Shown in pieces: positions 2 through 54,040 of a stretch of DNA of 64,000 nucleotides; the stretch's first letter is position 1, and each line of letters opens with the position of its first letter. The translations under genes were made by a program, and so were the position numbers. Under the pieces are notes generated by a model. The model was not told the DNA's origin and did not search any database. It saw only the letters and a list, made by a program, of their open reading frames with translations. The DNA comes from Candidatus Cryptoclostridium obscurum (GTDB lineage Bacteria; Bacillota; Dehalobacteriia; UBA7702): contig CAJFVQ010000038.1 in the NCBI GenBank assembly GCA_904420535.1, positions 8,539-72,538 of the forward strand, given 5' to 3'.

Positions 2-286
2 GATACGGAAAAAGACTACGCTTACAACGAAGAAACTTCAGAACGAAGAGATGACAGTGAAAGTGGTTCCGAGGAAACAACTACCAGAAAAGAAATGGTA
101 TTGTTGGATGGGGATACCTCACCTGTAGTCATTGGTGAAGTGCTTCCTGAAATTGTCGGAGTGATTGTTGTTGCCGAAGGAGCCTATCAAGCCGACATTC
201 GTGAATCGCTAAGTGAAGTTGTTTCAACTTATCTTGGCATTGGAGCCAATCGAATTGAAATTACTGCAATGGAGGCGGGATCATAA
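2..286 (+). CDS. spoIIIAG: Stage III sporulation protein AG, C-terminal part (5' end lies upstream of the window)
   Basis: Frame is open from the window edge to TAA 284-286. An acidic/Ser-Thr linker precedes a C-terminal GVIVVAEGAYQADIRESLSEVVSTYLGI segment typical of SpoIIIAG. The stop overlaps the next start (ATAATG). Confidence 0.75.
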   Translation, partial: DTEKDYAYNEETSERRDDSESGSEETTTRKEMVLLDGDTSPVVIGEVLPEIVGVIVVAEGAYQADIRESLSEVVSTYLGIGANRIEITAMEAGS

Positions 287-810
287 TGCAAAAATGGAAT
301 TTTCCAAAAGGGCAGGGGAATGGCCTCAAACCATGGATGAAAGTGACACTGTTGGTGTTAGCGGTCGTGGTGTTAATCACTATTTTTGCCGTACCTCGCC
401 TGGACGAATCATCCAAAGAAGATCCGTCAGTGGAGGACGTTGCTACTGGAGTGATCTATGAACAAGACTTTTTCGCCGATTATCGGAGAAAACGGGAGAG
501 TTGGCGAAGTGATGAGGAAGATCTTTACCGCAGTATTATCAATGATGACTATATGGATGCTGCGGACAAAAGTGCGGCCTCTGCAGATTATGATCTATAT
601 CTTCGCCGTTGCGAACTGGAAGATAAAGTGGAGGAGATTTTAAAAGGTCGCGGTTATTCCGATGTTATTTTTTCTATTGAGGATAATCTTTCATTTTTAA
701 TTTTGCAAAAAGATTCTCTCTCCGAAGAAGAAAGAAATGATTTATCCGCTTTTGTAGAAGCATATGCCGGGGTAGATGGAGAAAAACTCACAATATTTAC
801 GGCAAAGTAA
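286..810 (+). CDS. spoIIIAH: Stage III sporulation protein AH-like
   Basis: 174 aa with one N-terminal TM helix (VTLLVLAVVVLITIFAV) followed by an acidic extracytoplasmic domain. It is translationally coupled directly after spoIIIAG, as the last gene of a spoIIIA operon. Confidence 0.7.
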   Translation: MQKWNFPKGQGNGLKPWMKVTLLVLAVVVLITIFAVPRLDESSKEDPSVEDVATGVIYEQDFFADYRRKRESWRSDEEDLYRSIINDDYMDAADKSAASADYDLYLRRCELEDKVEEILKGRGYSDVIFSIEDNLSFLILQKDSLSEEERNDLSAFVEAYAGVDGEKLTIFTAK

Positions 811-828
811 AAATATCCCAAAAAAGAA

Positions 829-857
829 TTGTTATTTGAGTATGATTTTGATATAAT
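829..857 (+). promoter_or_regulatory. Sigma-A-type promoter candidate for the asp23/nusB operon
   Basis: TTGTTA (829-834), 17-nt spacer, TGaTATAAT (extended -10, TATAAT 852-857). Confidence 0.5.
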
Positions 858-937
858 ATAAATAAACATTTATGATACGAATTTTAAATCCTCATAGCTA
901 TCCTTTGGGGGATATTTACAATTACGGAGGAATCGAT

Positions 938-1357
938 ATGTCTGATACGAAAAATATGAATGACGCTCTTGAAACCAAGACTCCGGTAACCAGTGTCAGG
1001 ATCGCCGATGATGTGGTATCGGTCATCGCTTCTATGGCGGCGAGCGAAGTGGAAGGCGTCGGCGGCATGACGGGTAGTCTTGCCGGAGATCTGGTGGAAA
1101 AATTGGGAAAAAAGAATTTATCCAAGGGGATCAAAGTAGATGTCACCGATACAAGTGTTGCCATTAGTCTCAGTTTGTTGATGGAGTATGGTTATAAATT
1201 GCATGAAGTTGCAAAAAATGTGCAAAAAGCAGTCAAAAACGCGGTAGAAGCCATGACAGGACTTACTGTTTCCGAGGTCAATATTATGATTCAGGGGATC
1301 GTATTTCCCCAGCCCGAAGATGGTACGGAGGAGGAAACACAGACTTCCGAATCATAA
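938..1357 (+). CDS. Asp23/Gls24 family alkaline-shock/envelope stress protein
   Basis: VRIADDVVSVIASMAASEVEGVGGM is a typical Asp23 family N-terminus. Start moved to ATG 938, preceded by GGAGG (926-930); the ORF-track start at 872 has no SD. Confidence 0.85.
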   Translation: MSDTKNMNDALETKTPVTSVRIADDVVSVIASMAASEVEGVGGMTGSLAGDLVEKLGKKNLSKGIKVDVTDTSVAISLSLLMEYGYKLHEVAKNVQKAVKNAVEAMTGLTVSEVNIMIQGIVFPQPEDGTEEETQTSES

Positions 1358-1383
1358 GATTATGATTAGTCTGTGAAGATCAG

Positions 1384-1968
1384 ATGTCTCATTTTAATAA
1401 ATTGATAAGTATGGTTTTCGGTTGTGTTCTGGTGGCTTGGGGGATTGTCAATCTGCTGGACGGTTTATTTCACAGTCGCTTGACAGTGTTGATCACCCAG
1501 ACTATCGCGGACCACGGTGCCTTGGCTTTTGGATTTGCACTGCTATTGTTGGGAGGCTGTATCATTATTTTGAATCTCGTCATCCGCCCCCAGAGGACAG
1601 TCAAAGTTCCTGGAAGTAGTTCCCAAAAAACAGTTCAAGTGGCTTTGAGCACCATAGAGTCTATGGCCAAAAATGCAGCATTAGCAGTACCGGGTGTAAG
1701 TAACGTCAATACGAAAATTAAAAATAGCCGCCGTGGATTGATCCTTGATATTAGTATCCATATGGAATATCATGATAAAATAACCGCTGTGACGGAACAG
1801 TTGCAGGACGATATCAAAACCTTGATTGAATCAGGAACAACCGTTCCGGTGCATTCGGTACAAGTGACAGTGGTAAAAGCCGCTGGAGAAAAGGATGCCG
1901 CTGGTTATCGAAGCAATCAGAAAGCGGCAACACGGCAAAATCACGGCGACAGAGAGGGAAAACAGTGA
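1384..1968 (+). CDS. Membrane-anchored Asp23-domain protein (AmaP-like anchor)
   Basis: Two N-terminal TM helices followed by an Asp23-like segment (ALSTIESMAKNAALAVPGVSNV). Sits directly downstream of asp23. Confidence 0.7.
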   Translation: MSHFNKLISMVFGCVLVAWGIVNLLDGLFHSRLTVLITQTIADHGALAFGFALLLLGGCIIILNLVIRPQRTVKVPGSSSQKTVQVALSTIESMAKNAALAVPGVSNVNTKIKNSRRGLILDISIHMEYHDKITAVTEQLQDDIKTLIESGTTVPVHSVQVTVVKAAGEKDAAGYRSNQKAATRQNHGDREGKQ

Positions 1969-2396
1969 ACAGACATCAGGCGAGAGAAACTGCCTTCCGT
2001 ATGATTTTTCAAATGGATGTTGGCAAAAATGAGTATGAAACCGCGAAAGAAACAATGTGCGAAGCGATTGCAGATGGGTACATTTCCACGGAGGATTGTC
2101 CATATATTGAAGATGTTGTCCAAGGGGTCGCAGAAAAACGCGCTGCATTGGACGATTTTATTATGGCCCATGCCAAAGGTTGGAAGTTGGAGCGTATCAA
2201 TCCTGTTGATCGTAATTTAATTCGTCTATGCCTCTATGAAATTCAATACTTGAAAGATGTACCTTTTGAAGTCGCCATAGATGAGGCTGTGGAATTGGCA
2301 AAATCTTACGGTGAAGAGGAATCGTATGCTTTTGTCAATGGGATCCTTGATAATGCGAAAACTCTTGTTGCGGATGATCAAAAAAATGAAGTTTAA
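1965..2396 (+). CDS. nusB: Transcription antitermination factor NusB
   Basis: MNRHQARETAFRMIFQMD N-terminus and the AIDEAVELAKSYG motif. GTG start overlaps the upstream stop (GTGA). Confidence 0.92.
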   Translation: MNRHQARETAFRMIFQMDVGKNEYETAKETMCEAIADGYISTEDCPYIEDVVQGVAEKRAALDDFIMAHAKGWKLERINPVDRNLIRLCLYEIQYLKDVPFEVAIDEAVELAKSYGEEESYAFVNGILDNAKTLVADDQKNEV

Positions 2397-2414
2397 CAGG
2401 AAGTAATCAAAACA

Positions 2415-3374
2415 ATGATTTTAGCCATTGATACTAGTTGTTACACGACTTCCATGGCCCTGATGGATATGGAAGGCAATCTTTTGTCCGATCAGAGGAG
2501 AGTCTTGGATGTTCCCCTAGGGGAACGTGGGTTATCCCAGTCCGAGGCTCTTTTTCAGCATCATCGAAACCTTCCTTTGCTGATAGAAAAAGTGGCACAA
2601 GATTACGATTTGCGGAATTTGGCAGCGCTCGGTGTGAGTACACGTCCTCGCCCAGTAGAGGGATCTTATATGCCTGTTTTCCTCGGAGGAGAACAAACGG
2701 CTTCTGTGATTGCCGCTTCACTACGGGTACCGTTGCACCGGTTCAGTCACCAAGAGGGGCATATGATGGCTGGTCTCTTTTCTTCAGAATTCCGACCTCA
2801 CAACGGCCATAAATTTTTTTTGGTACATTTTTCCGGCGGTACTTCAGAAATCCTTTTGGCGGAAAAACATGGCAACGGTGATTATCTTTTGACATTGTAT
2901 GCATATGGAAACGATCTCCATGCAGGTCAATTTGTCGACCGGATTGGGGTATTGCTGGGATTAAAATTTCCCACCGGCGCAGCGCTGGAACGTTTGGCCG
3001 CCCAATACCAAGGCGAAGTTCCCAAAATCAAAACCTGGGTGAAAGGAAAGGAATTTTCTTTTTCCGGTCAGGAAACCGCTATTCGGCGCCTTGTCGAAAA
3101 GGGGCTTCCCCATGGTGCGGCGGCCCGTGCCGTGGAAGAGACCATTGCCAGAACCATGATAAAAGTGTTATCCAATGCTATGGAAGAAACAGGGATCTTT
3201 GATATTTTACTGGTTGGCGGCGTGATGTCCAACCAGTTGATTGCCGATAGATTGAAACGAAAATTACCAACAGCGCGTCTTTGGTTTACGGCTTCCCGGT
3301 ATGCTTCTGATAATGCAGTGGGAATTGCGGCGATCACCAGAGAAAATTTATGCAATGAATCATATGGAAAGTGA
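2415..3374 (+). CDS. TsaD/Kae1 (peptidase M22, ASKHA fold) family paralog
   Basis: ILAIDTSCYTTS N-terminus and an HQEGH metal-binding H-x3-H motif, as in N6-threonylcarbamoyladenosine synthase family proteins. Divergent and short (319 aa). Confidence 0.75.
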   Translation: MILAIDTSCYTTSMALMDMEGNLLSDQRRVLDVPLGERGLSQSEALFQHHRNLPLLIEKVAQDYDLRNLAALGVSTRPRPVEGSYMPVFLGGEQTASVIAASLRVPLHRFSHQEGHMMAGLFSSEFRPHNGHKFFLVHFSGGTSEILLAEKHGNGDYLLTLYAYGNDLHAGQFVDRIGVLLGLKFPTGAALERLAAQYQGEVPKIKTWVKGKEFSFSGQETAIRRLVEKGLPHGAAARAVEETIARTMIKVLSNAMEETGIFDILLVGGVMSNQLIADRLKRKLPTARLWFTASRYASDNAVGIAAITRENLCNESYGK

Positions 3375-4606
3375 ATCTTGAAACAATGGCAGAACGAAAA
3401 GTTGTGACAGTAAGTCAGTTAAATTATTACATTAAAAAACGTTTTGAAAATGATGAAGCATTAAAAAACCTATGGATTGAAGGAGAAATTTCTAACTTTA
3501 AAGCACATTCCTCCGGGCATCTCTATTTCGGTTTAAAAGATGAGACCTCTTTTTTGCGGGCAGTTATGTTTCGCAGTAGTGCTTCTAAACTGAAATTTCG
3601 CCCAGAAAACGGCCAGAAAGTTATGGTCAAAGGCTCAGTATCCGTTTATGAAAGAGACGGGCAATATCAGCTTTACGTCAGTTCTATGGAAGTAGCGGGG
3701 GTCGGTGACCTCTACGTTGCCCTTGAACAACTAAAAAAGAAATTAAATGCGGAAGGACTTTTCGACCCTTCTCATAAAAAATCAATTCCGCTTTATACCC
3801 CAAAAATCGGAGTGGTGACGTCACCGACAGGGGCTGTATGGCACGATATTCAGAACGTATCAACAGCACGTTTCCCTTCGATCAGTTTATTGCTCTATCC
3901 CGCGGCAGTCCAGGGCGATGCTGCAGAATTTGAGGTGGCCGCGGGGATTGCATATTTCAACCGTCGTGACGATGTGGGGCTCATTATTGTAGGACGTGGT
4001 GGCGGCTCTATCGAAGATTTATGGGCATTCAATAGCGAAACCGTCGCCAGGGCAATTTATCGTTCTCGTTTACCGGTAATCTCTGCTGTGGGACATGAAA
4101 CAGACTATACCATTGCGGATCTTGTAGCGGACCAACGAGCGGCTACGCCTTCTCATGCCGCAGAAATGGCGGTTCCTGCTTTGAGTGATTTGAGAAAACA
4201 TTTGGCGATGCTAAATCATTCCTTGGACAGTCAAGTTAGCTTTCGGATCTCATCCTATCGCGACCGGCTGAAAAAAATTGCGGAAAGTTATATTTTCCAG
4301 CAAAAGGATCAGCTGTTCCGCAATCAGATCCAGCAAGTGGATATGTTATCCCAGCGACTGGATGCGGTATTCCAAGAATCCTATCAAGAAAAAAAGAACA
4401 ATTATCGAATTTTGGCAGAAAAACTTGCTATGCTCAGTCCCTTACACACTTTAGAGCGTGGTTACAGCATCTGTCTAAAGGACGGAAAGCTGCTTCATGA
4501 CGCTTCTGCGACCGAAAAAGGTGATTCCGTAATAGTGCAGTTATCGAAGGGACATTTAAAGTGCCGAATCGAAGAAGGAAACGAGGAAAATTATTATGAC
4601 AGATAA
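3371..4606 (+). CDS. xseA: Exodeoxyribonuclease VII large subunit
   Basis: VSQLNYYIKKRFE...LWIEGEISNFKAHSSGHLYFGLKD OB-fold N-terminus, catalytic core and coiled-coil tail. GTG start overlaps the upstream stop; ATG 3386 is an alternative start. Confidence 0.92.
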   Translation: MNLETMAERKVVTVSQLNYYIKKRFENDEALKNLWIEGEISNFKAHSSGHLYFGLKDETSFLRAVMFRSSASKLKFRPENGQKVMVKGSVSVYERDGQYQLYVSSMEVAGVGDLYVALEQLKKKLNAEGLFDPSHKKSIPLYTPKIGVVTSPTGAVWHDIQNVSTARFPSISLLLYPAAVQGDAAEFEVAAGIAYFNRRDDVGLIIVGRGGGSIEDLWAFNSETVARAIYRSRLPVISAVGHETDYTIADLVADQRAATPSHAAEMAVPALSDLRKHLAMLNHSLDSQVSFRISSYRDRLKKIAESYIFQQKDQLFRNQIQQVDMLSQRLDAVFQESYQEKKNNYRILAEKLAMLSPLHTLERGYSICLKDGKLLHDASATEKGDSVIVQLSKGHLKCRIEEGNEENYYDR

Positions 4607-4904
4607 ACAGAAGATACCCTTTGAAGATGCTGTAAAAGAATTGGAAAAAGCAGTGAAGATTATGGAGAGCGGCGATTTGGGACTCGATCAGCTGCTGGAG
4701 CAATATGAAAGGGGCATCCATCTTTTGCGCTGTTGTGAAGCGAAATTAGCGGAAGCTGAGGGAAAAATAGAGGTTCTGACCCAAAAGGAAATTAAAACAG
4801 AATGTATTGAAAAGGCGGAAGTGCAAGATGGTTCAATGCCAGAGGAGACTGAAGAAATACCTCTTCCAGAGGAACCATTGACCGACGAAAACACTCTATT
4901 TTGA
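4596..4904 (+). CDS. xseB: Exodeoxyribonuclease VII small subunit
   Basis: FEDAVKELEKAVKIMESGDLGLDQLLEQYERG is the typical XseB helix pair. Overlaps the xseA stop. Confidence 0.9.
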   Translation: MTDKQKIPFEDAVKELEKAVKIMESGDLGLDQLLEQYERGIHLLRCCEAKLAEAEGKIEVLTQKEIKTECIEKAEVQDGSMPEETEEIPLPEEPLTDENTLF

Positions 4905-4913
4905 GGTTTTGCC

Positions 4914-5789
4914 ATGGATATTCAAAAAATCTTAAGGGGAAAACAGGAACAGTTCGAAACCTATATTGCCGATTTACCTCGCATGGAATCGGGAACTTTA
5001 CGAGACGCTATGGCGTATAGTTATTTAGCACAGGGAAAAAGACTGCGTCCATCTTTATTTCTTTTGGCAGCAGAGACCTTTGGCGCTGATTCCCAAGATC
5101 TATTGCCTTTTGCCGCAGGGATTGAGATGATTCATACCTATTCTTTGATTCATGACGATTTACCGGCAATGGACAATGATGATTACCGCCGTGGTAAGCC
5201 GACGTGTCACAAAATATTTGGCGATGGTATGGCGGTTTTAGCAGGTGATGGACTTTTGACCGAGGCCTTTCAGATGATGATATCAATAAGAGATATCGTG
5301 GAGCCTGCAAGACTTTTGGGAGCGCTGGAAATGGCTGCCTCTCATAGTGGTATTCAAGGAATGGTCTATGGACAAAGTCTCGATATTGAAGGAGAGGGAA
5401 AACCCCTGACTTTAGAGGAATTAAAAACAATCCATTATTATAAAACAGGTGCGCTTTTGAGTTTTTCCATGGCGTCCGGTGCTTTATTGGCTGGTGCCAA
5501 AGAAGATGAAGTTAAGGCGATGGATTTTTATGGTCGAAAGTTTGGACTGGCTTTTCAAATAACCGATGATATTCTTGATGCTACTGGTTCTTTTGAAACT
5601 TTAGGAAAGCCCATCGGCTCTGATCAGAAAAGTCATAAAACAACTTATGTTACTTTGCTGGGGATTGAAGGAGCAAGATCTGAAGCCCGAAAAGCAATGA
5701 AAGAGGCAAAGGTGAGCATTTCAAAGATTTCCAGAGATCTGGCGGTATTTCATTCCTTGGGAAAATATGTAATAGAGCGAGACCGTTAG
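4914..5789 (+). CDS. ispA: Farnesyl/geranylgeranyl diphosphate synthase (polyprenyl synthetase)
   Basis: First Asp-rich motif LIHDDLPAMDNDDYRRG and second motif FQITDDILD. Confidence 0.93.
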   Translation: MDIQKILRGKQEQFETYIADLPRMESGTLRDAMAYSYLAQGKRLRPSLFLLAAETFGADSQDLLPFAAGIEMIHTYSLIHDDLPAMDNDDYRRGKPTCHKIFGDGMAVLAGDGLLTEAFQMMISIRDIVEPARLLGALEMAASHSGIQGMVYGQSLDIEGEGKPLTLEELKTIHYYKTGALLSFSMASGALLAGAKEDEVKAMDFYGRKFGLAFQITDDILDATGSFETLGKPIGSDQKSHKTTYVTLLGIEGARSEARKAMKEAKVSISKISRDLAVFHSLGKYVIERDR

Positions 5790-5806
5790 GTCACCCTTTT
5801 CAGCAC

Positions 5807-5835
5807 TTGAATTATTGTTTGAATTTCTGTAAAAT
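5807..5835 (+). promoter_or_regulatory. Possible dedicated promoter just upstream of the OLE RNA
   Basis: TTGAAT (5807-5812), 17-nt spacer, TAAAAT (5830-5835). The predicted start falls about 7-10 nt later, at the 5' arm of the closing helix. Confidence 0.35.
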
Positions 5836-5844
5836 ATAATATAA

Positions 5845-6420
5845 ACAGGTGATGCGGTATTCTAGTCAGCAATTCTTTGTCTGAAGGCGGGCCTAAAAAT
5901 CCGTTAAGAGCACATCGATGAAGTTTCTGGTGTTGGCTTCTTACGCCCAGTTTGGGGCTGATACTGGAAGTTAAGGTTATAGGGGAACCATCAATGGCAT
6001 GATGATCTTACCCTGTTTCCGTGGAGACCCAAAACTGTGGGGAACTTTTTTTGGTCGGAAAGGGAACTATGGCTTGGGAAGAACCTGCATTCGGATGCAC
6101 TGGGTGCAGTGTAGCTTGACTTGCGTGGTTAAGGTGGAATATCAGAACAGCTTGGATGATCACCCGGACCAAGGTTTTATCCGAGTTATGAAACCGGTAC
6201 TGCAAAAGAGTCTAAGACATCGAGGCGCTGCCGAGGAAAACTCCTAGACCGTTTATTTTATAAGGCTTAACCGGGATTAAAGTACGGACTAAGTGGCAAT
6301 CCGGTACCGTTAAGGATTTTTGAGTAAAGGGAAACCGCCCCACCGGCGACGGTGAGGTTCAAAAATGGGAAAGCCTTCCGGACCAAAGCCGTAGCGTTTA
6401 CCGGCGAAGTTGTCACCTGT
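5845..6420 (+). ncRNA. ole: OLE (ornate, large, extremophilic) RNA, about 575 nt
   Basis: 657-bp gap between ispA and the next start, with no credible ORF. Nested long-range helices: 5845-5852/6413-6420, 5886-5890/6335-6339 and 5895-5902/6314-6321. Many local hairpins, including a GNRA-capped stem at 6341-6354. The context ispA | RNA | 4-TM protein | dxs is diagnostic for OLE. Confidence 0.85.
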
Positions 6421-6446
6421 TTTATCTATATGAGAGGAACTTTATT

Positions 6447-7034
6447 TTGTCAAACAAAAAAAGTGAACATAAACGGAAGGGTGCATTGAAACACTTTTTA
6501 CTGGTGTTCCTTGGTACCCTTTTTTTAGGAGCATTGATTAGTACCGTAACTACGGCAGCAACGGAGCATATGGGGACCATGATCACTGTACTCATTGTGC
6601 TGCTGTTTGTTATTTTTATTGGAATTTTGTTTGATGGTATTGGTGTAGCGGTGGCTGTGGCAGATCCGGCTCCTTTTCATGCTCGGGCCTCGCGCCGGGG
6701 ACCGGGAGCAAAGGTCAGTTTGAAATTAATGCGTCGTGCCAGCGTTGTGGCAAATATATGCTGTGACGTTGTGGGAGATATCTGTGGTATTGTTTCCGGT
6801 GCTTTAGGAGCTACCATCGCTTTGTTATTGATCGATAAGCTGAATTTTCACGCCTTATTTGTTTCTTCTTTGGTTTCGGGAATGGTAAGCGCTTTTACAG
6901 TAGGCGGAAAGGCGCTAATGAAGACTCTGGCAATTTCAGAAGCAAATAAGATCATGAAATGGGTCGGAATTTTATTGGATTATAAGAACTGGTCTCTTTT
7001 ATGGTCCACAAAAAAGGATGGAAAAGGAGCATAA
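6447..7034 (+). CDS. oapA: OLE-associated protein A (small 4-TM membrane protein)
   Basis: 195 aa with a basic N-terminus (KKSEHKRKGALKH), about four hydrophobic helices and a DVVGD (D-x3-D) motif in a TM segment. TTG start, with GAGAGGA SD 8 nt upstream. Lies directly after OLE and before dxs. Confidence 0.8.
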   Translation: MSNKKSEHKRKGALKHFLLVFLGTLFLGALISTVTTAATEHMGTMITVLIVLLFVIFIGILFDGIGVAVAVADPAPFHARASRRGPGAKVSLKLMRRASVVANICCDVVGDICGIVSGALGATIALLLIDKLNFHALFVSSLVSGMVSAFTVGGKALMKTLAISEANKIMKWVGILLDYKNWSLLWSTKKDGKGA

Positions 7035-7040
7035 ACCGAA

Positions 7041-8918
7041 ATGTATGATATTTTGGGGCAAATCAACAGTCCCGATGATGTAAAAAAACTAAATTCTGCG
7101 GAACTGACTTCTCTGGCGAAGGAACTCCGACAGTTTATGATCGAGCATGTTTCCAAAACAGGTGGCCATCTTGCCCCAAGTTTGGGCGTAGTTGAATTGG
7201 TATTAGCTCTTTGCAGAGTTTTTGATTTTCCGCGGGATCGTTTGATTTTTGATGTAGGCCATCAATGTTATGCTTACAAGATTTTAACTGGAAGGCGCGA
7301 TGAGTTTGCTACTCTACGCCAAACTGACGGTATCAGCGGTTTCCCAAAAAGCGAAGAAAGCGAATATGATGCTTTCAATACAGGACACAGCAGTACTTCA
7401 ATTTCCGCTGGATATGGTATGGCTGTTGCCCGAGATTTACAAGGGGAAGATTATCATGTAATCAGCATCATTGGCGATGGTGCTTTAACCGGAGGAATGG
7501 CTTTTGAAGCTTTAAATAATGCTGGCAGCAGCGGAAAAAATTTTATTGTGATTCTAAACGATAATGCCATGTCCATTTCGCAAAACGTTGGCGCTATTGC
7601 AGATTATTTGAGCCGTTTTCGAACGGCTCCGCAATATGAACGAAGAAAACGAGCCGCAGAACGCTTTTTTAATCGTTCCTCTTTTGGGCAGCGAATTTTT
7701 GGTCGTTTACGTCGCATTAAAGATAGTTTGAAATATCTTGTCGTGCAAGGGGTTATATTTGAAGAGTTTGGTTTTACCTATCTTGGTCCCATCGACGGTC
7801 ATAACATCGATATGATGCAATCATATCTCAAAATCGCCAAAAATTTAAATGGCCCTGTTTTGCTCCATGTTCATACCAAGAAAGGACGAGGGTATCTTCC
7901 TTCGGAAACGGATCCCGATCGCTTCCACGGTATTGCTCCATTTGACCCTGAAAGTGGAAAATTGGTTCAAAAAGGACCTAAGAAGTTGACATTCAGTCAA
8001 AGCTTCGGCGATACTTTGTTGGAAATGGCATCTTCCGATGAGAAAATATGTGCCATTACTGCTGCTATGCCCAGCGGTACAGGTCTATGTCCTTTTGCCG
8101 ATACATTCCCCAACCGCTTTTTTGACGTTGGAATTGCAGAACAACATGGAGTAACCTTTGCTGCTGGTTTAGCGAAAGCCGGAATGCACCCTGTCGTTGC
8201 CATTTATTCATCCTTTTTGCAACGTGGATTTGACCAGGTATTCCATGACGTTTGTTTGCAGTCGCTGCCGGTGATCTTGGGGGTTGATCGTGCCGGGATT
8301 GTGGGCGAAGATGGGGAAACCCATCAAGGTATTTACGATATTGCATATTTGCGAATTTTACCAAATATGACACTAATGGCCCCCTCAACTCATAATGAGA
8401 TGGTTGATATGTTGCGTTTTGCAAAAGAATTAAACGCTCCGTGTGCATTGCGCTATCCAAGAGGTAATGTTTTAGAGTGGGACAAAGAGTTGGATTTACC
8501 TCCCCTTGTGTTGGGGCGAGGAGTATTTGTTTATGAAGGGAAAGACGTCATGCTGGTTCCTTTGGGAACCATGATGGAAGAGGCATTAAAAGTCCGGGAA
8601 TTTTTGGAAGAACGGGGAATTTCAACAGGCGTTTTCAATCCACGGTTTGTGAAGCCTTTGGATCATGATGCTTTGCGTCACATCGGCATTTCTTATAATT
8701 TAGTCGTTACTATGGAAGACCATGTAATCAATGGAGGGTTCGGCTCCGCTGTTGGTGAATACTATCATGAACAGGAAATAGACAGTGATCTTCTTTCCAT
8801 AGCTCTTCCCGACCATCCGGTCAAACAGGGAAAGAGAGAAGAAATCTTCAAAAAATACCAAATGGATGCAGAATCCATTACCGAACGCATTGTAAAACGT
8901 TTGGAGGAAAAACGATGA
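7041..8918 (+). CDS. dxs: 1-deoxy-D-xylulose-5-phosphate synthase
   Basis: GGHLAPSLGVVEL, the TPP motif IIGDGALTGGMAFEALNN and a transketolase-like C-terminus. 625 aa. Confidence 0.96.
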   Translation: MYDILGQINSPDDVKKLNSAELTSLAKELRQFMIEHVSKTGGHLAPSLGVVELVLALCRVFDFPRDRLIFDVGHQCYAYKILTGRRDEFATLRQTDGISGFPKSEESEYDAFNTGHSSTSISAGYGMAVARDLQGEDYHVISIIGDGALTGGMAFEALNNAGSSGKNFIVILNDNAMSISQNVGAIADYLSRFRTAPQYERRKRAAERFFNRSSFGQRIFGRLRRIKDSLKYLVVQGVIFEEFGFTYLGPIDGHNIDMMQSYLKIAKNLNGPVLLHVHTKKGRGYLPSETDPDRFHGIAPFDPESGKLVQKGPKKLTFSQSFGDTLLEMASSDEKICAITAAMPSGTGLCPFADTFPNRFFDVGIAEQHGVTFAAGLAKAGMHPVVAIYSSFLQRGFDQVFHDVCLQSLPVILGVDRAGIVGEDGETHQGIYDIAYLRILPNMTLMAPSTHNEMVDMLRFAKELNAPCALRYPRGNVLEWDKELDLPPLVLGRGVFVYEGKDVMLVPLGTMMEEALKVREFLEERGISTGVFNPRFVKPLDHDALRHIGISYNLVVTMEDHVINGGFGSAVGEYYHEQEIDSDLLSIALPDHPVKQGKREEIFKKYQMDAESITERIVKRLEEKR

Positions 8919-9706
8919 AGAAACGTTTGGATCAAATTTTGATGGAGCGTAATTTATTTCCCTCCCGGGAAAAAGCGCGCTCTGCCATTATGACAGGACG
9001 AATTCTCATCAAAGGTAAGAAGGAGACAAAGGCTGGAACCATGGTTCCGGAAGATGCTGTGATTGAAATGATAGGCAATGATTTGCCTTATGTCAGTCGC
9101 GGTGGACTAAAGTTAGAAAAGGCTGTTGATTGTTATCAACTGGATTTTAAAGGGAAAATTGTCTTGGATATTGGCGCGTCGACCGGTGGTTTTACGGATT
9201 GTTCTTTGCAAAACGGCGCTGCAAAAGTTTATGCCGTGGATGTGGGCTACGGTCAGCTGGCGTGGTCGCTTCGGAATGATGATAGGGTAATCGTTCTGGA
9301 AAAAACGAACGCCCGTTACTTATCTAAAGAGCAAATTCCGGAACCGGTGGACTACATTGTAATTGACGCGTCTTTTATTTCGCAAAAAAAACTGATCCCA
9401 AACTTGCTCCAATTCATGAAAGACGACACTTGCTTTATCACATTAATTAAACCGCAGTTTGAGGCGGGACGTGAGCAAGTAGGGAAAAAAGGAGTTGTGC
9501 GAGATCCTTCTATCCATATCGAAGTAATCACAGACCTTGTTTCCTTTTTTCATCAACAGGGACTGGCAATACGCGGATTAACATATTCTCCCATCAAAGG
9601 GCCGGAAGGAAATCGGGAATATTTGGTAATTCTCGAAAAAGGGGACGCAGTTGTTACAGCATACGAGATTTCATCTATTGTAAATGAAGCCTTCGAAACT
9701 GTATAA
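8915..9706 (+). CDS. tlyA: TlyA family rRNA (cytidine-2'-O)-methyltransferase
   Basis: N-terminal S4-like domain (RLDQILMERNLFPSREKA), FtsJ-type SAM motif LDIGASTGGFTD. Overlaps the dxs stop. Confidence 0.9.
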   Translation: MKKRLDQILMERNLFPSREKARSAIMTGRILIKGKKETKAGTMVPEDAVIEMIGNDLPYVSRGGLKLEKAVDCYQLDFKGKIVLDIGASTGGFTDCSLQNGAAKVYAVDVGYGQLAWSLRNDDRVIVLEKTNARYLSKEQIPEPVDYIVIDASFISQKKLIPNLLQFMKDDTCFITLIKPQFEAGREQVGKKGVVRDPSIHIEVITDLVSFFHQQGLAIRGLTYSPIKGPEGNREYLVILEKGDAVVTAYEISSIVNEAFETV

Positions 9707-9785
9707 AAAATTTTAGCATGAATATTCATCTACCTATTTACAGCAGGATGTTTTCGTTGTATATTATATATAGAGGTAACGGAAA

Positions 9786-10646
9786 ATGCGGAAAATCTGT
9801 GTTTTATCCAATTTGAGCAAAAACGGTGTACTAGATCAAGAAAGAGAAATTGTGAGCTGGTTAGAAGATCGTGAAGTAGATGTGCTCACTCCCGCCCATC
9901 CTTATGATGTTTTGGATCAGGATTTCCTCTTTCAGTATTTTGAAGGTGTTGCTTCTCAATGCGAGGCGGTACTCGTTTTAGGAGGCGATGGCACGTTATT
10001 GTCCGTAGCGCGCCAGGCCGCTTACTATAGTCTCCCTCTATTGGGTATTAATATGGGTCGTATTGGATTTTTGGCCGAATTGGAACAAGGGAAGGAACTT
10101 TTTCTCTCTCTGGAACGTATGCTGAATAAAGACTTTTTTCTGGAAGATCGTATGATGCTCCAGGTCAGTATCCGATGCAATGGCAGGAAATGGAAAACAT
10201 ATCACTGCCTTAATGATGGAGTGATTTTAAAAGATGATCGCTCCGGTCTGATCGAAATTACAGCATATATTGATGGTCGAGAATCCGTTTCATACCATGC
10301 AGACGGCATTATCGTAGCGACTCCGACCGGCGCCTCAGGTTATTCCTTATCTGCGAATGGTCCTTTGGTGTCTCCGGAGATGGAAGCGATTATCATAACA
10401 CCGATTTGCGCCCAATCCCTTTATAGTCGTCCTGTTGTGGCCGGCGCCGACCGTGTGATTACTGTGAAAACCAAAGTTTCGGAAGGCGGATGTTATCTGA
10501 GTATCGACGGGAAAACCGCTACTGTGCCATTGGCAGAGGGAGATGAGATTTTTTTTGAAAAATCTTCTATGAAAACTGTTTTTATCCGTCTGAACGGTAA
10601 AACGTTTTTTGATGTCTTGAATGAAAAATTGCGCGGTAGAAGATAG
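9786..10646 (+). CDS. nadK: NAD kinase
   Basis: GGDGTLL motif, plus NDGVI and ATPTGASGYSLSANGP motifs. Confidence 0.93.
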   Translation: MRKICVLSNLSKNGVLDQEREIVSWLEDREVDVLTPAHPYDVLDQDFLFQYFEGVASQCEAVLVLGGDGTLLSVARQAAYYSLPLLGINMGRIGFLAELEQGKELFLSLERMLNKDFFLEDRMMLQVSIRCNGRKWKTYHCLNDGVILKDDRSGLIEITAYIDGRESVSYHADGIIVATPTGASGYSLSANGPLVSPEMEAIIITPICAQSLYSRPVVAGADRVITVKTKVSEGGCYLSIDGKTATVPLAEGDEIFFEKSSMKTVFIRLNGKTFFDVLNEKLRGRR

Positions 10647-10737
10647 CGCTTTAGGGACAATTCCGAGACCCTTGGTAGTATTGTAATATGAAAATACTTG
10701 TTGTTAATGTTAAAAGCTTTGGCTGTGATGACTTGCG

Positions 10738-11301
10738 ATGAGAATACAAAAAACTGTTGTAGAAATGATCCATGACACCTTAGATTTTGTAGTAAATCAA
10801 GGAGATATTGTGGTTGATGCCACTGCGGGAAATGGTCATGACACATTGAAACTTGCGGAACTTGTAGGGGAAGATGGTCATGTCTATGCCTTTGATATCC
10901 AGCAAACAGCTTTAGATCACACCAAAGAGCGTCTGGCGGAAGCAGACTTTTTGCAAAGAGTAACCTTGTTACATTTGGATCATAGTATTATGGATACGGT
11001 GATAAAAGAAAAAATTGCTGCCGTTGTGTTCAATTTAGGATATTTGCCCGGTGGGAGTCATCAAATTATTACGGAGCCACGGAAAACCATTACCGCCTTG
11101 GAACATAGTTTGGAATTACTTCAATCCGGCGGTGTAATATTAATCGGGGTTTATTGGGGCCACCCCGGAGGAGAGATCGAAAAAAATGCAGTGGAGCAGT
11201 GGCTTCGCCAATTGCCTGCCGCAGATTATGACATCATGGAGACATCTTTTCCCAATCGACAAAAAGCGCCAATTGTAATCACATTGCAAAAGAAATGTTA
11301 A
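10738..11301 (+). CDS. Class I SAM-dependent methyltransferase, YtqB/MnmM-like
   Basis: GDIVVDATAGNGHDTLKLAELVG...VYAFDIQ matches the YtqB-type putative rRNA/tRNA methylase family. ATG 10765 is an alternative start. Confidence 0.75.
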   Translation: MRIQKTVVEMIHDTLDFVVNQGDIVVDATAGNGHDTLKLAELVGEDGHVYAFDIQQTALDHTKERLAEADFLQRVTLLHLDHSIMDTVIKEKIAAVVFNLGYLPGGSHQIITEPRKTITALEHSLELLQSGGVILIGVYWGHPGGEIEKNAVEQWLRQLPAADYDIMETSFPNRQKAPIVITLQKKC

Positions 11302-11313
11302 GGGAGAAATAAA

Positions 11314-11772
11314 ATGGGAACGAAAGCATCGCGACAGAAGATGATTCAAAAAATTATTGAAAAGGATGAAATCAGCACGCAGTTTGATTTGGCAGAACAA
11401 TTAAAAAAACATGGTTTCAATGTTACTCAGGCTACGGTTTCTCGCGATATTAAGGAAATCGGATTGATTAAAATTCCAATTGAGGGTAACCTTTCAAAAT
11501 ACAGCATGCCCGTGAATATTTCTATGGGAAATATCGCGGAACGTATGCGCCGTATGTTTATGGATAACGCTGTGTCGATTAATAGTGCGGAAAATATTAT
11601 TGTGATCAAAACATTACCCGGGACTGCCCAAGGTCTGGCTGCTTGTCTTGATCAAAGTAACTGGCCAGAAATCATTGGAACCATTGCTGGTGATGATACC
11701 ATAATGCTGGTAATTAAAGAAAAAAACCTTGTTGACAGTATCATGAAAAAATTTGATACCTTGATTAACTGA
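11314..11772 (+). CDS. argR: Arginine repressor
   Basis: RQKMIQKIIEKDEISTQFDLAEQLKKHGFNVTQATVSRDIKEIGL winged-helix domain; C-terminal GTIAGDDTIM arginine-binding motif. Confidence 0.93.
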   Translation: MGTKASRQKMIQKIIEKDEISTQFDLAEQLKKHGFNVTQATVSRDIKEIGLIKIPIEGNLSKYSMPVNISMGNIAERMRRMFMDNAVSINSAENIIVIKTLPGTAQGLAACLDQSNWPEIIGTIAGDDTIMLVIKEKNLVDSIMKKFDTLIN

Positions 11773-11791
11773 GTTACAAATGGAGGGAGAA

Positions 11792-13450
11792 ATGTTAGCG
11801 GAGCTTTATGTGAAAAACTTTGCTCTCATTGAAAACCTGCAAATTGAATTTCATGACGGATTGAATGTGATCACCGGGGAAACTGGTGCCGGAAAATCAC
11901 TTCTTACTGATGCCGTAGGCCTTTTGATGGGGGGCAGGGCAGATAAAGAGTTTATCCGTTACGGATGCGCAAGGGCTTTGGTAGAGGGTACTTTTACCGG
12001 CCCTTTTTCTGCTTCCCTCAATGATTTGCTGACAGAGAATGATATGAATGACGATGTCATTGTAATTTGTAGAGAAATTAGCGCGGAAGGAAAAAACCTT
12101 TGTCGTATTAACGGGCGCCGTGTCAGTCTTGGTTTTTTATCATCTTTGGTGCCTGGGCTGATGAATATGCACAGCCAAACGGAACATTTTTATCTGCTCC
12201 ATGAAGATCATCAACTTTCCTTGTTGGATCGTTTTGGCGGCGAGGAAATTATAAAAGCAAAAGATACACTATCATCGGCTTATCATCTTTGGCAAACTGC
12301 TGCAAATAAGCGTAAGGAATTGGAACAAAAGAACGAAGATCGTGAAAAAGAAATGGATTTTTTGCGATTTCGCATCAACGAATTACGGGAACTTGCGTTG
12401 GAGCCTGGCGAGGAAGAATCTTTACGACATGAGATTGCGCTCTTAAGTACCAGTGATCGCCGTTTTAGCGAGAGCGATACAATTTATCGTGCGCTTTCCG
12501 ATGCTACGGAATCCCTTTATCATGCCATGGAATCTGCCAAGCGCGCTTGCGATTTTGATGCTGATTTGGCAGAGTCGGCGGAATCTTTAACGGAATCTTA
12601 TTATAATATAGAAGATGCCTGCGAATTTTATCGACAATATCGTGACAGAATTGATTCTGATCCCTTAAGACTAAACGAAGCAGAGGAACGCCTGGATCGC
12701 ATTTTGCGTATGGGGAAAAAATATCACAGCGACTGCGACGGTATGATTGCATTGCTGTCATCTATGGAACAGGATTTGGCGACATTTGAAGATTTTGATG
12801 ACAATCTTACACGATTGCGCAAAGAAGAAGATGATGCTTACGCTCAAGTATTGCTCAAAGCCGATGCCTTATCGGAACTTCGTGCATCTGCAGCTGAGCG
12901 GTTAAGCAAATTGATTTTAGATGAGATTCAAAGTCTTATGCTGCCTGATGCAGTTTTTAACATAAAGCTGGATAAACAATCAATGACTAAGGAAGGACAA
13001 GATCGCGTCACTTTTATGATTAGCATGAATAAAGGGGAGCAACAAAAGCCCTTATCAAAAGTGGCCTCCGGCGGAGAAATGTCACGTATCCTTTTGGGGA
13101 TGAAGGTGATTTTAGCTCAGATGGATCAGGTTGGCACGATGATATTTGATGAAATTGACAGTGGGCTAGGTGGCAAAACCGCTACCAAGGTTGGTGAAAA
13201 GTTGCGCCGCTTGTCACGGGAAATTCAAGTATTTTCTGTGACTCATTCCGCGATTGTAGCAGCGTGTGCCGATTATCACTACCGTATTGAAAAACATGAC
13301 GAAGGAGCGCGTACCGTTACCACCATATCAGAATTGGATAGCGATGCTAGAAAAAGAGAAATTGCTCGAATGCTTTCAGGAAACGAGACCAGCGAGGTTT
13401 CACTTTCCCAAGCAGAATCTCTGATTGAGACAATGTCACACTATGATTAA
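11792..13450 (+). CDS. recN: DNA repair protein RecN
   Basis: Walker A GETGAGKS, long coiled-coil, C-terminal ASGGEMSRILL signature and FDEIDSG Walker B. Start set at ATG 11792, after GGAGGG. Confidence 0.94.
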   Translation: MLAELYVKNFALIENLQIEFHDGLNVITGETGAGKSLLTDAVGLLMGGRADKEFIRYGCARALVEGTFTGPFSASLNDLLTENDMNDDVIVICREISAEGKNLCRINGRRVSLGFLSSLVPGLMNMHSQTEHFYLLHEDHQLSLLDRFGGEEIIKAKDTLSSAYHLWQTAANKRKELEQKNEDREKEMDFLRFRINELRELALEPGEEESLRHEIALLSTSDRRFSESDTIYRALSDATESLYHAMESAKRACDFDADLAESAESLTESYYNIEDACEFYRQYRDRIDSDPLRLNEAEERLDRILRMGKKYHSDCDGMIALLSSMEQDLATFEDFDDNLTRLRKEEDDAYAQVLLKADALSELRASAAERLSKLILDEIQSLMLPDAVFNIKLDKQSMTKEGQDRVTFMISMNKGEQQKPLSKVASGGEMSRILLGMKVILAQMDQVGTMIFDEIDSGLGGKTATKVGEKLRRLSREIQVFSVTHSAIVAACADYHYRIEKHDEGARTVTTISELDSDARKREIARMLSGNETSEVSLSQAESLIETMSHYD

Positions 13451-16692: not shown

Positions 16693-17442
16693 TTATTCAA
16701 TCCAGTATTGCCCCAAGTCTTCACCAAGATCACAGGTATAGTGCCATTCAATGACATCGCCATCTTGAACTTGGTACCGGCTGCAGCCATAATTGGGATA
16801 CCATCCATTAACGCTATACATCCAACCGCTCAATTCTCCGCAATCAAACTCGTAAAGATTATTAATTCCTTCAATATAATGGGAATTGTACATTGGCGTC
16901 CATGAGTATTCCATATGGATTTTATTATTTTGACATTCACGGAGCAGTACGTCAAAGACAGATTCACCTTCATAAAAAGTTACAGTTTGCTTTTTATAAA
17001 TCACCCCGTTTGAAGGTACAAGGCTTTCTTTGTTTGCGGTAAGATCTTCCATATTACTTAAAATCGTGGAGCACTCAATATATAATGTGCATGTATGGGG
17101 TTTCGATTTATCTACTGTGGTATCATCGGGCTCTACAGGTTTCGGTTTTCCTTCAGGAATGGGATCGGTATGATATTGATCTTGACCGGATTCCGCATTG
17201 TAAGAGGTGCTGCTTTCTGCATTGGAATACTTGTCATAATCGGCGTTACTATCACCAACGTCGTCGACGTCGATATAACCGTCATCGTTTTCTTCCTGAT
17301 TTGCATTTTCTTGAGTTTCTGTAGCGGCCACTTCTGTATCGGAATTTCCTTCCGCTGCATTTTCATTGCCACAGGATGTGAGCATCATACCTAAACTCAA
17401 GATCATAATTAACAGCAACAATAAGATGCTTTTGCGTTTCAT
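16693..17442 (-). CDS. DUF4430 (transcobalamin C-terminal-like) domain lipoprotein
   Basis: Start moved to ATG 17442, after GGAGGAGG. Signal plus lipobox MLTSCGN, acidic low-complexity linker, then C-terminal VTFYEGESVFDVL...GELSGWMYSVNGWYPNYGCSRYQVQDGDVIEWHYT, typical of DUF4430. Confidence 0.85.
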   Translation of the reverse strand: MKRKSILLLLLIMILSLGMMLTSCGNENAAEGNSDTEVAATETQENANQEENDDGYIDVDDVGDSNADYDKYSNAESSTSYNAESGQDQYHTDPIPEGKPKPVEPDDTTVDKSKPHTCTLYIECSTILSNMEDLTANKESLVPSNGVIYKKQTVTFYEGESVFDVLLRECQNNKIHMEYSWTPMYNSHYIEGINNLYEFDCGELSGWMYSVNGWYPNYGCSRYQVQDGDVIEWHYTCDLGEDLGQYWIE

Positions 17443-17482
17443 GTTCTGCCTCCTCCTTTTGACTCTCTTTGTTTTTAGCATG

Positions 17483-41579: not shown

Positions 41580-41637
41580 ATATATTTATAATATCGAATA
41601 TTGTTTGAACCACGAAACTAGCAAAGGATACAGTATT

Positions 41638-42645
41638 ATGAAAAAAGTAGTAATTATTTTAATCATTCTCGTCGTTCTGGCGGCCGTTGCAATACCGCTC
41701 TATCGGTATTTTATGCCTTATCGTGTAGATAGCGTTACTGTGGAAATTCCGGCCGAGACTACCTCATCGGAAATTGGATCTATCCTTGCCGATCACCATG
41801 TTATTCGCGGAGAATTGGATTTTAAAGTTTATTTAAAACTCTCTGGCAGAGGGAATGATTTGCAGCAGGGCAACTATACTTTTGACGGATCTTACAGCCT
41901 GAAAGAAGTGGTGGACCGTCTGGAAGAGGGCGGAGAAGATTCCGTTGGTACAAGGGTCACCATTCCAGAAGGATACAATATGGAACAGATCATTGCAACA
42001 CTGGAAGAAAAAGGCGTTACTACCAGGGAAGAATTTTTGGATGCTGCCGCCAATGGCGATTATAATTATGATTATATCGGTGAAAAGGGAGACGCTCTCC
42101 GTGTCCAAGGGTATCTTTTCCCTGAAACCTACCTTTTCGAAAAAGGTATTTCTGCATACGATGTAATTAATACCATGATTGCGCAATTTGACAGTTTACT
42201 GACAGACGAATGGAAAGCACAGTTAGCTACGCGGGGGCTTTCAATCCATGATTGGGTAACCATGGCTTCTATCGTTGAAAAAGAAGCTGTAGTGCAGGAA
42301 GACCGTCCCATTATTGCGGGTGTTTTTTACAATCGTCTGGATCAGGGGATGCTTTTGCAAAGCTGCGCAACAGTGCAATATGCTTTGGGAGAAGTAAAAC
42401 CCGTTTTGACCAATGAGGATGTTGCCGTCGATTCTCCTTACAATACCTATATCCATGAGGGGTTGCCGCCGACTCCCATTGCTTCGCCAGGAGAAGCCTC
42501 GTTAGAAGCAGCGCTGTATCCCGCCGATACGACTTATCTCTTCTTTGTGGCCAAGCCCAATGGCGCCCATATTTTTACCAATACTTATGAAGAACATCTT
42601 GCTGCCATTGAGGCTATTGAAAGAGGGGACTATGATAACGAATAA
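41638..42645 (+). CDS. mltG: Endolytic murein transglycosylase MltG (YceG family)
   Basis: N-terminal TM helix, plus EGYLFPETY, ASIVEKEA and YNTYIHEGLPPTPIASPG motifs. Start at ATG 41638. Confidence 0.93.
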   Translation: MKKVVIILIILVVLAAVAIPLYRYFMPYRVDSVTVEIPAETTSSEIGSILADHHVIRGELDFKVYLKLSGRGNDLQQGNYTFDGSYSLKEVVDRLEEGGEDSVGTRVTIPEGYNMEQIIATLEEKGVTTREEFLDAAANGDYNYDYIGEKGDALRVQGYLFPETYLFEKGISAYDVINTMIAQFDSLLTDEWKAQLATRGLSIHDWVTMASIVEKEAVVQEDRPIIAGVFYNRLDQGMLLQSCATVQYALGEVKPVLTNEDVAVDSPYNTYIHEGLPPTPIASPGEASLEAALYPADTTYLFFVAKPNGAHIFTNTYEEHLAAIEAIERGDYDNE

Positions 42646-53756: not shown

Positions 53757-53797
53757 GCTTGATTCTCCTTTTCTTGTTCAAACTGTTGTGTGGAATT

Positions 53798-53826
53798 ATT
53801 ATACTTTATCGAACTAAATTTGTAAA
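53798..53826 (-). promoter_or_regulatory. Promoter candidate for the amino-acid ABC operon
   Basis: Minus strand: TTTACA (53821-53826), 17-nt spacer, TATAAT (53798-53803). Confidence 0.5.
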
Positions 53827-54011: not shown

Positions 54012-54040
54012 TTGACTAGATTTTTGCAATTTGATAAAAT
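54012..54040 (+). promoter_or_regulatory. Promoter candidate for the pur operon
   Basis: TTGACT (54012-54017), 17-nt spacer, TAAAAT (54035-54040). Confidence 0.5.

Follow-up and report, generated by a model that had tools for sequence, protein, structure and literature searches.

In a 64,000-nucleotide stretch of DNA from Candidatus Cryptoclostridium obscurum (contig CAJFVQ010000038.1 of assembly GCA_904420535.1; hereafter the window), we identified a gene for OLE (ornate, large, extremophilic) RNA, a large, structured and membrane-associated non-coding RNA (ncRNA) of Gram-positive anaerobes, together with the gene for its membrane partner, OapA. We hold with high confidence that positions 5845-6420 of the plus strand are the OLE RNA gene and that the open reading frame (ORF) at 6447-7034 is oapA. 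OLE is an already known class, and the locus is an ordinary member of it, save for a lineage-wide loss of the hairpin that binds the protein OapB. The window is thus a modest, lineage-level variation on a known theme. OLE is among the largest and best-conserved bacterial ncRNAs whose biochemical job remains unsettled, and cryo-electron microscopy (cryo-EM) suggests that it may cross the membrane (PMC12265935). ORF-based annotation is blank at OLE, and the correct label accounts here for a seemingly empty gap of 657 bp and for the unnamed membrane protein beside it.

An earlier note on this DNA, made by reading the sequence, had placed a structured RNA of about 575 nt with a terminal closing helix in the gap between ispA and dxs and had assigned it to the OLE class, i.e., to a known class and not to a new one. 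The RNA, its closing helix and its assignment were all confirmed, and the errors of the note were confined to three of six individual helices. The gap is as it was described: the ispA stop (TAG, 5787-5789) and the next start (TTG, 6447) are 657 bp apart, and all remaining junctions of the co-directional gene string (286 to 13450) are of 91 bp or less. The order of ispA, OLE RNA, a small protein with four transmembrane (TM) segments and dxs was also borne out, and it recurs in relatives.

The whole window was scanned with the Rfam 15 covariance models at gathering thresholds. The OLE model, RF01071, matched the plus strand at 5833-6432 with 426.5 bits (gathering threshold, 50; E = 6.7e-122). 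The match is untruncated, spanning model positions 1-616 of 616, and it is the sole Rfam match at gathering threshold in the 64 kb; the intergenic gaps at 23312-23875, 26173-26519, 41580-41832 and 53757-54030 (approximately 250-560 bp) gave none. The window has both partners for 150 of the 159 model pairs, 126 of which are canonical there. Bit scores were equally strong for OLE in the syntenic gap of relatives. OLE RNAs are about 600 nt long with about a quarter of their positions almost invariant; the 576 nt from P1 to P1 in the window fit this description. Of the 218 columns with a conservation of 95% or more in the 111 other OLE sequences, the window matches 202.

Comparative evidence for the fold

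A single OLE block that hardly varies served to collect 119 genome loci, of which 111 are complete and were aligned with the window. The resulting alignment (A1, 112 sequences) draws on Bacillaceae, Paenibacillaceae, Alicyclobacillaceae, Syntrophomonadaceae, Clostridiaceae, Tissierellaceae, Thermoanaerobacterales and others, and its members are 54-76% identical to the window sequence. The structure tested on A1 was the Rfam structure plus three long-range 5'/3' helices, P1-P3, which are unpaired in the Rfam structure line and are named after the current literature (PMC12265935; Wallace 2012, PMC3413148). Helix names were assigned from the text of these papers, and those of domain 2 follow Yang 2021. 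Such named structures were tested instead of the results of a raw all-against-all search for pairable column runs, which was swamped by chance-pairing invariant blocks.

With P1-P3 included, 86.2% of the alignment cells were paired, and double-sided changes were observed in 138 of 180 pairs. None of 500 shuffles reached any of the five measures used, and pairing fell to 39-47% when the 3' partners were slid by 1-3 columns. Sixteen nucleotides of the window depart from columns conserved at 95% or more. Four of them were lost with P13, and six make up three compensatory double changes, namely G5856-C6250 in P2 (shared with locus L053, and A-U in the 110 other sequences), A6119-U6211 at the base of P9 and G6303-C6379 in P12.2. 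Compensation of this kind at near-invariant positions shows that selection still acts on the fold in the lineage.

Several observations weigh against the assignment or parts of it. Thermodynamic folding of the 576-nt RNA was not significant (minimum free energy [MFE] -186.5 kcal/mol, z = -1.59, with 6 of 100 shuffles at least as good); folding energy was given no weight as structural support, and the comparative evidence was counted instead. P13 is reduced to a stub in which the GNRA tetraloop and the single-nucleotide bulge are absent, and the P9 loop palindrome GGCC, present in 100 of the 112 sequences, is missing from the window and L053. OapB (KOW) and OapC (L7Ae) were sought among 15 small ORFs of the window, and neither turned up. 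The genes for these proteins are normally unlinked, and the result is uninformative for the whole genome. By sequence, the putative OapA had no Pfam, NCBIfam or PDB-sequence match, and its matches by fold have weak E-values (0.014-0.19). Finally, the ends, abundance and promoter use of OLE are inferred here, and the most likely mechanism, in which the RNA would regulate a transporter, is a hypothesis derived from the literature.

The six complementarities listed in the earlier note are exact, and their covariation on A1 divides them equally. The closing helix 5845-5852/6413-6420 (86.5% paired, 8/8 pairs changing on both sides) is P1. The hairpin CATCA-ATGGCA-TGATG at 5989-6004 (99.6% paired, 3/5 pairs covarying) is the one called P6.1, and CACCG-GCGA-CGGTG at 6341-6354 (88.5% paired, 4/5 pairs covarying) is P14.1 with its GNRA loop. 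The nested long-range architecture was unsupported, its two inner helices being in conflict with local helices that covary. The 94% of cells in which GGCGG 5886-5890 and CCGCC 6335-6339 could pair reflect only the conservation of the two strands: double-sided changes are absent from all five pairs. The GGCGG strand covaries locally as P4, where 19 sequences go from C-G to U-A while the distant partner keeps its G, and the CCGCC strand belongs to the covarying P14.1. The pairing of AAAAATCC (5895-5902) with GGATTTTT (6314-6321), found in 29.4% of cells, was rejected; its A-run is the invariant P4 loop, and the segment 6316-6323 covaries in 8/8 pairs with 6359-6366 as P14.

The same two pairings might be taken for an alternative or tertiary conformation that links domains 1 and 2, both being exact complements in the window and the first being pairable in nearly all cells. 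We regard this as very improbable, given the local covariation of the strands involved and the cryo-EM structures, which place the P4 loop in an intermolecular A-A dimerization contact (PMC12265935).

The third complementarity that failed, CTTGG/CCAAG (6151-6173), lies in the poorly aligned, variable tip of P9 and is paired in 47% of cells. Two of its five pairs are broken in L120, one of the additional relatives (L120 and L122-L129) that were found via their OapA proteins, and it is probably a coincidence of sequence. An alternative distal fold, 6151-6157/6179-6185 plus 6162-6164/6173-6175 with the apical loop CGGACCAA (6165-6172), is the one in the MFE structure, and it carries compensatory changes in L120 (A6156-U6180 to G-C and C6164-G6173 to U-A).

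The local and long-range helices of the RNA are collected in Table 1, together with the flanking genes. The palindromic CUAG block of P2 has been named as one OapA-binding site (Lyon & Breaker 2025). The inner P3 helix is 96.4% paired, with covariation in 4/5 pairs, and three middle P3 pairs are specific to the window; the P3 stem has been proposed to span the membrane (PMC12265935). The GCACAUCGAUGAAG block contains the palindromic AUCGAU site for OapA and the 5' part of the kink-turn bound by OapC (Lyon & Breaker 2025, among other sources). The four helices of P5/P5.1/P6/P6.1 are 96.0%, 97.3%, 81.9% and 99.6% paired, and the conserved kissing-loop nucleotides GCC and GGC of the P5.1 and P6.1 loops are present and invariant. 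In domain 2, two small hairpins flank the 3' strand of P2 (6244-6252). The P14.1 GNRA tetraloop is present, as are the elements P12.2, P14, P14.1 and the GGGAAAGCCU block of the P12.2/P13/P14/P15 four-way junction. A U-tract (6421-6424) directly follows the 3' strand of P1; the segment 6421-6432 reads UUUUAUCU, the Rfam consensus is also U-rich there, and no local terminator hairpin was predicted at this site.

Table 1. Positions of the OLE RNA, its parts and the adjoining genes in the window
Feature	Positions	Strand	Evidence or remark
ispA (farnesyl diphosphate synthase), upstream neighbour	4914-5789	+	PF00348; NF045485, 337.8 bits (cut-off 275)
Promoter-like site: -35 TTGAAT (5807-5812), 17-nt spacer, -10 TAAAAT (5830-5835)	5807-5835	+	9/12 matches
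OLE RNA gene as bounded by the Rfam model	5833-6432	+	RF01071
OLE structured core, P1 to P1, 576 nt	5845-6420	+	Helices
P1, 5' strand (ACAGGUGAU), pairs with 6412-6420	5845-5853	+	86.5-87.9% paired, 9/9 pairs covary; in MFE fold
P2, 5' strand (GCGG..UCUAG), pairs with 6244-6252; palindromic CUAG	5854-5865	+	Two helices, 98.7% and 99.8% paired
P3/P3.1, 5' strand, pairs with 6215-6230	5867-5882	+	Outer four and inner five pairs covary strongly
P4 hairpin (GGCGGG/UCCGUU), invariant A-rich loop CCUAAAAA	5886-5905	+	99.7% paired, 5/6 pairs covary
GCACAUCGAUGAAG block (P4a / J4a-5)	5910-5923	+	Invariant or nearly invariant columns
P5/P5.1, loop ACGCCCAGU	5924-5970	+	Covarying helices
P6/P6.1, including CAUCA-AUGGCA-UGAUG (5989-6004)	5975-6020	+	Covarying helices
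P7, variable stem, 51 nt (family median 44)	6028-6078	+	Consensus helices
P8, variable stem, 25 nt (median 30.5)	6085-6109	+	Consensus helices
P9, long arm, 95 nt (median 100)	6118-6212	+	Base from consensus helices; distal part from MFE fold
Small domain-2 hairpin GAG-GAAAA-CUC	6233-6243	+	99.4% paired
Small domain-2 hairpin UUAU-UUU-AUAA	6253-6263	+	93.6% paired
Domain-2 core	6264-6411	+	Helices 88-99.6% paired
P12 series	6264-6274/6401-6411, 6283-6287/6389-6393	+	P12: 10/11 pairs covary
P12.2	6300-6305/6377-6382	+	Covaries; compensatory G6303-C6379
P13 stub (ACCGUUAAGG): two C-G pairs, 5-nt loop	6306-6315	+	Model positions ~479-495 deleted
P14	6316-6323/6359-6366	+	8/8 pairs covary
P14.1, GCGA tetraloop (6346-6349)	6337-6345/6350-6358	+	Paired, covaries
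GGGAAAGCCU block	6367-6376	+	Present in Rfam model match
P1, 3' strand (GUCACCUGU)	6412-6420	+	Same covariation as 5' strand
oapA, 195-aa membrane protein, TTG start, GAGAGGAA ribosome-binding site 8-15 nt upstream	6447-7034	+	Synteny, DxxxD, fold
dxs (1-deoxy-D-xylulose-5-phosphate synthase), downstream neighbour	7041-8918	+	PF13292, E 4.8e-121

Five of the records with the full OLE block carry labels from outside Bacillota: Varibaculum timonense, a Fibrobacter metagenome-assembled genome (MAG), a Deltaproteobacteria MAG, Pseudomonas sp. ISL-84 and a Spirochaetia MAG (L025, L028, L032, L063 and L092, in this order). These are probably mis-binned or mislabelled contigs, and the same suspicion has been voiced for 24 non-Bacillota OLE matches (Fernando & Breaker 2024). 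In addition, two contigs of one Syntrophomonas MAG (binchicken_co59_827; L009 and L101) contain what appears to be the same OLE region, which suggests assembly redundancy and not two gene copies.

The P13 stub and the altered P9 tip

The GNRA loop and the bulge of P13 form the primary OapB-binding site (Yang 2021). Of the 112 aligned sequences, 110 have a P13 segment of 20-23 nt with GGNRAC; the window (10 nt) and L053 (9 nt) are the exceptions. This count rests on the length distribution and on the near-invariant columns 822, 823, 826 and 827. A stricter GNRA detector, which asks for at least 3 bp abutting the loop, undercounts such hairpins (75/112); GGNRAC is visible in every listed long segment.

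The same stub was found in L120 and L122 (each with 78% OapA identity) and in L126, L127, L128 and L129 (down to 48%). In L126-L128, with OapA identities of 53-59%, both the stub and a GACCAA tip of P9 are kept; in L129, at 48%, only the stub is. L124 and L125 have a 24-nt P13 hairpin with a U-loop in place of GNRA. The stub itself covaries among these relatives (CC/GG, CU/AG and UUCC/GGAA). Judged from the sequences, the four-way junction has kept a predicted mini-hairpin but not the OapB determinants. The loss of P13 does not exclude membership in OLE, because the same loss has been reported in the literature for accepted OLE variants. The GCGA loop of P14.1, a weak secondary OapB site (Yang 2021), is kept in the window. 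If OapB is present at all, it could use only this weaker site.

In the OLE dimer, the two RNAs touch symmetrically through a kissing loop formed by the GGCC palindrome of P9 (PMC12265935). The window has GGACC at the P9 tip, a sequence whose self-complementarity is restricted to the nucleotides on either side of a central A-A, and P9 loops of the GACCAA type predominate in its clade.

These features can be combined into a tentative picture of the sizeable lineage to which the window belongs (L053, L120, L122 and L126-L129 are among its members). Its OLE RNA is otherwise full-length, with P13 replaced by a conserved mini-hairpin of 2-4 bp and the GGCC of P9 mostly replaced by GACCAA. The particle may then be OapB-free or rewired to P14.1, with an altered fourth dimer contact, provided that OapB needs P13 as it does in H. 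halodurans. We consider this a possibility with somewhat less than an even chance of being correct. If it is true, the lineage offers a natural "minimal domain 2" for separating essential from dispensable contacts of the ribonucleoprotein.

A different explanation of the same features is decay, i.e., the locus would be a non-functional OLE relic in which the loss of P13 and of the GGCC loop marks the start of erosion. The stub, the altered P9 tip and the 16 departures from conserved positions could be read in this way. However, 6 of the 16 are helix-preserving compensatory pairs, the stub and the GACCAA tip persist across L126-L128 with OapA proteins that are 53-59% identical, the stub covaries, the bit score is as high as those of relatives, and oapA is intact. 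Decay is therefore highly unlikely, and we retain the view of a functional OLE gene with lineage-specific changes in P13 and P9.

OapA, transcription and the neighbouring genes

The 195-aa ORF was named OapA via synteny, motif and fold because naming by sequence had failed; even at E values of up to 10, the only Pfam match was CNNM (PF01595; E = 1.2). At 109 of the 119 loci, the gene that directly follows OLE on the same strand encodes a homologue, and 7 of the 10 exceptions are loci cut off near the RNA. The DxxxD motif, whose definition as OapA-specific was taken from the literature, is DVVGD (residues 107-111) in the window. All 120 database homologues and all 107 OLE-linked ORFs have the motif. 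Its two aspartates, D107 and D111, do not vary in an alignment of 59 homologues, and all invariant residues are intact in the window protein. Residues 73-100 form a basic cluster (7 K/R, 1 D/E) of the kind expected of OapA on a loop between TM helices, and Kyte-Doolittle analysis shows about four hydrophobic segments. An AlphaFold model built from the 59 homologues (pLDDT 81) has long helices at 5-41, 45-71, 98-132 and 136-164. In Foldseek, the five best PDB matches of this model were all CNNM-family Mg2+ transporters (MtCorB, 7M1T and 7M1U; CorC, 7CFF), with probabilities of 0.99-1.00 and TM-scores of 0.44-0.52; the next matches reached at most 0.16. By synteny, DxxxD motif and fold, the ORF is OapA. 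By analogy with the family, this protein would bind the OLE RNA and recruit it to the membrane.

An OLE sequence identical to that of the window, with the same xseA-xseB-ispA synteny, is present in a KIMC21-1 metagenome scaffold (ENA ERZ28594273, scaffold_18683; L123). The OapA called there is 47 residues shorter (148 aa, with a later start), which shows the variability of oapA annotation.

The promoter-like site upstream of the RNA (Table 1) lacks an extended TG and is, taken alone, no better than chance in this region. Its -10 element ends 11 nt before the well-supported part of P1, and the predicted start is near 5842. Across the family, TTGNNN-N16-18-TANNNT occurs within 75 nt upstream of P1 at 66 of the 112 OLE loci, compared with 10.8% of shuffled upstream regions. 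In these sites the -10 element ends 10-19 nt before P1, and 56 of the 66 have the extended TG; a conserved motif, TTGA.. / TGnTATAAT, is visible directly upstream of OLE at most of the 112 loci, at A1 columns of about 130-180. A proximal promoter of this kind increases the expression of OLE by a factor of more than 100 in B. halodurans, where the 5' ends coincide with the start of P1 (Wallace 2012, PMC3413148). By analogy, a promoter function is inferred for 5807-5835.

No plus-strand terminator was predicted between OLE and oapA, and co-transcription of the two is thus likely. Together with the location of the element, which is that of a 5' untranslated region, this would also be expected of a cis-acting leader, such as a riboswitch or attenuator, that controls oapA-dxs and is not a stand-alone RNA. 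We give this explanation very little credence: the element is about 576 nt long with more than 20 conserved helices, it matches OLE only and no riboswitch or leader family, and the OLE RNA of B. halodurans is a single, exceptionally stable and highly abundant RNA that works with OapA when it is provided from a distal locus (PMC3413148).

The gap could also encode a small protein, in which case its RNA-like features would be incidental. Two ORFs are indeed present, of 82 aa (5999-6247, plus strand) and 65 aa (6008-6205, minus strand). In line with the earlier note, which saw no family resemblance in them, neither matches a Pfam or NCBIfam family. Its claim that they lack Shine-Dalgarno sequences is weak, as a purine-rich GGGGAA is located 12-17 nt before the ATG at 5999. 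This motif is immaterial because the 82-aa frame is not conserved, being broken by stops or frameshifts in L120, L053 and L124. The longest plus-strand ORF has a median length of 45 aa over the 112 OLE sequences, and substitutions track base-pair covariation and not codon structure. A protein-coding origin of the gap can, in practice, be set aside, and the OLE RNA remains its occupant.

The RNA is located within a cluster of Asp23/yqhY-like genes, nusB, xseAB, ispA, dxs, tlyA, nadK, argR and recN. Upstream of ispA are xseA and xseB, and dxs is followed by genes for a tlyA-like methyltransferase, nadK, an rRNA methylase, argR and recN. Two neighbouring Asp23-family (yqhY-like) genes were found at 872-1968, 5' of nusB, and argR (11314-11772) is 3' of the locus. 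An ORF for a TsaD/Kae1-like protein of 319 aa (2415-3374; PF00814, E = 2e-25) occupies the interval between nusB and xseA, where, judging from the gene order of B. subtilis, the usual occupant is presumably folD. Among genes linked to ole, yqhY ranks high, and ArgR is an as yet unpublished candidate partner; the ole-linked processes include isoprenoid biosynthesis and DNA repair (Lyon & Breaker 2025).

OLE hosts are Bacillota, typically anaerobic or extremophilic and often spore-forming. The window encodes SpoIIIAH and SpoIID, the relatives of its OapA carry the labels Clostridiales, Bacillota and Dehalobacterium, and the nearest OLE sequence, L053, is from a MAG labelled Peptococcaceae, all of which would be consistent with such a host.

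Farther from the locus, a 956-aa ORF (13588-16458, minus strand) was left without a Pfam match at a cut-off of E = 1e-5. After it come genes for two DUF4430 proteins (16693-17481, minus strand, and 17924-19171, plus strand), one of which has S-layer homology (SLH) domains; these genes and the 956-aa ORF may form a cell-surface cluster. A small ORF with the homing-endonuclease-associated HNH_repeat (19202-19642) adjoins an HTH_3 regulator (19905-20162); this pair, situated between the genes for the surface proteins and ruvCAB, may be what is left of a mobile element.

Proposed function and known systems

The literature on OLE suggests the following scheme for this locus. Transcription of the RNA is probably strong, being driven by a sigma-70-type promoter of the gene itself (5807-5835), and probably reads through into oapA. 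Two domains would form in the RNA, a cytoplasmic domain 1 (P3-P9) and a second one (P1, P2 and P10-P15), and dimers would be held together by the A-rich P4 loop and by kissing of the P5.1 and P6.1 loops. OapA would bind the palindromic blocks CUAG (P2) and AUCGAU (P4a), both of which are present here, and hold the RNA in or at the membrane. The particle may reside at the membrane and possibly span it via P3. In the most likely mechanism, the RNA would be a scaffold with a regulatory or sensory role in an OapA-based, CNNM-like device for transport of divalent cations (Mg2+), standing in for the CBS and CorC domains of the all-protein relative MpfA. Membrane and ion status would in this way be coupled to tolerance of alcohol, cold, excess Mg2+ and poor carbon sources.

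Since a standard Rfam scan finds OLE, the locus adds nothing new on the class itself. In its lineage, the P13-OapB contact and the GGCC kissing loop have been lost and the rest is under purifying selection, which helps rank the essential contacts. A P13-less lineage with a changed P9 tip is worth the note of OLE specialists.

The closest known systems are the full-length OLE RNAs (RF01071) of Halalkalibacterium halodurans, Clostridium acetobutylicum and C. botulinum. The window shares with them the length, the order and pairing of P1-P12 and P14/P14.1, and the invariant blocks GUAUUCUAGUCA, CCUAAAAAUCC, GCACAUCGAUGAAG, CAAUGGCAUG, CCGUGGAGA, GGAUUAAAGU..ACUAAGUGG, AAAGGGAAACC and GGGAAA.CC, as well as the putative proximal promoter, the oapA gene directly downstream and the ispA/dxs/xseAB/argR/recN neighbourhood. 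It differs in the P13 stub, in the P9 loop CGGACCAA, which replaces a loop containing GGCC, and in P8, which is at the short end of the range. The OLE "variant 1", common in the TANB77 clade, often lacks the P13 OapB site, like the window (Fernando & Breaker 2024). This variant is, however, defined by shortened P7, P8 and P9, and in the window P7 has 51 nt against a median of 44 and P9 95 nt against 100. The "variant 2" of the RF39 clade belongs to the same class and has the conserved core but neither P7 nor P8; the window is not a variant 2, because both stems are present.

On the protein side, the relatives of OapA are the CNNM-family Mg2+ transporters MpfA, CorB and CorC. At the top of the PDB ranking, its predicted fold matches CNNM transmembrane domains only, in agreement with a published comparison of OapA with CorB. 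Unlike these domains, OapA has four TM helices instead of three and a DxxxD motif, and it has no CBS or CorC domains. GOLLD and ROOL resemble OLE in being large, highly structured, homo-oligomerizing ncRNAs whose biochemical function is not known. They differ from it in sequence and fold, to which they show no relation, in their association with phages, in their assembly into nanocages and in their lack of a dedicated partner protein in the membrane; neither had a match in the window.

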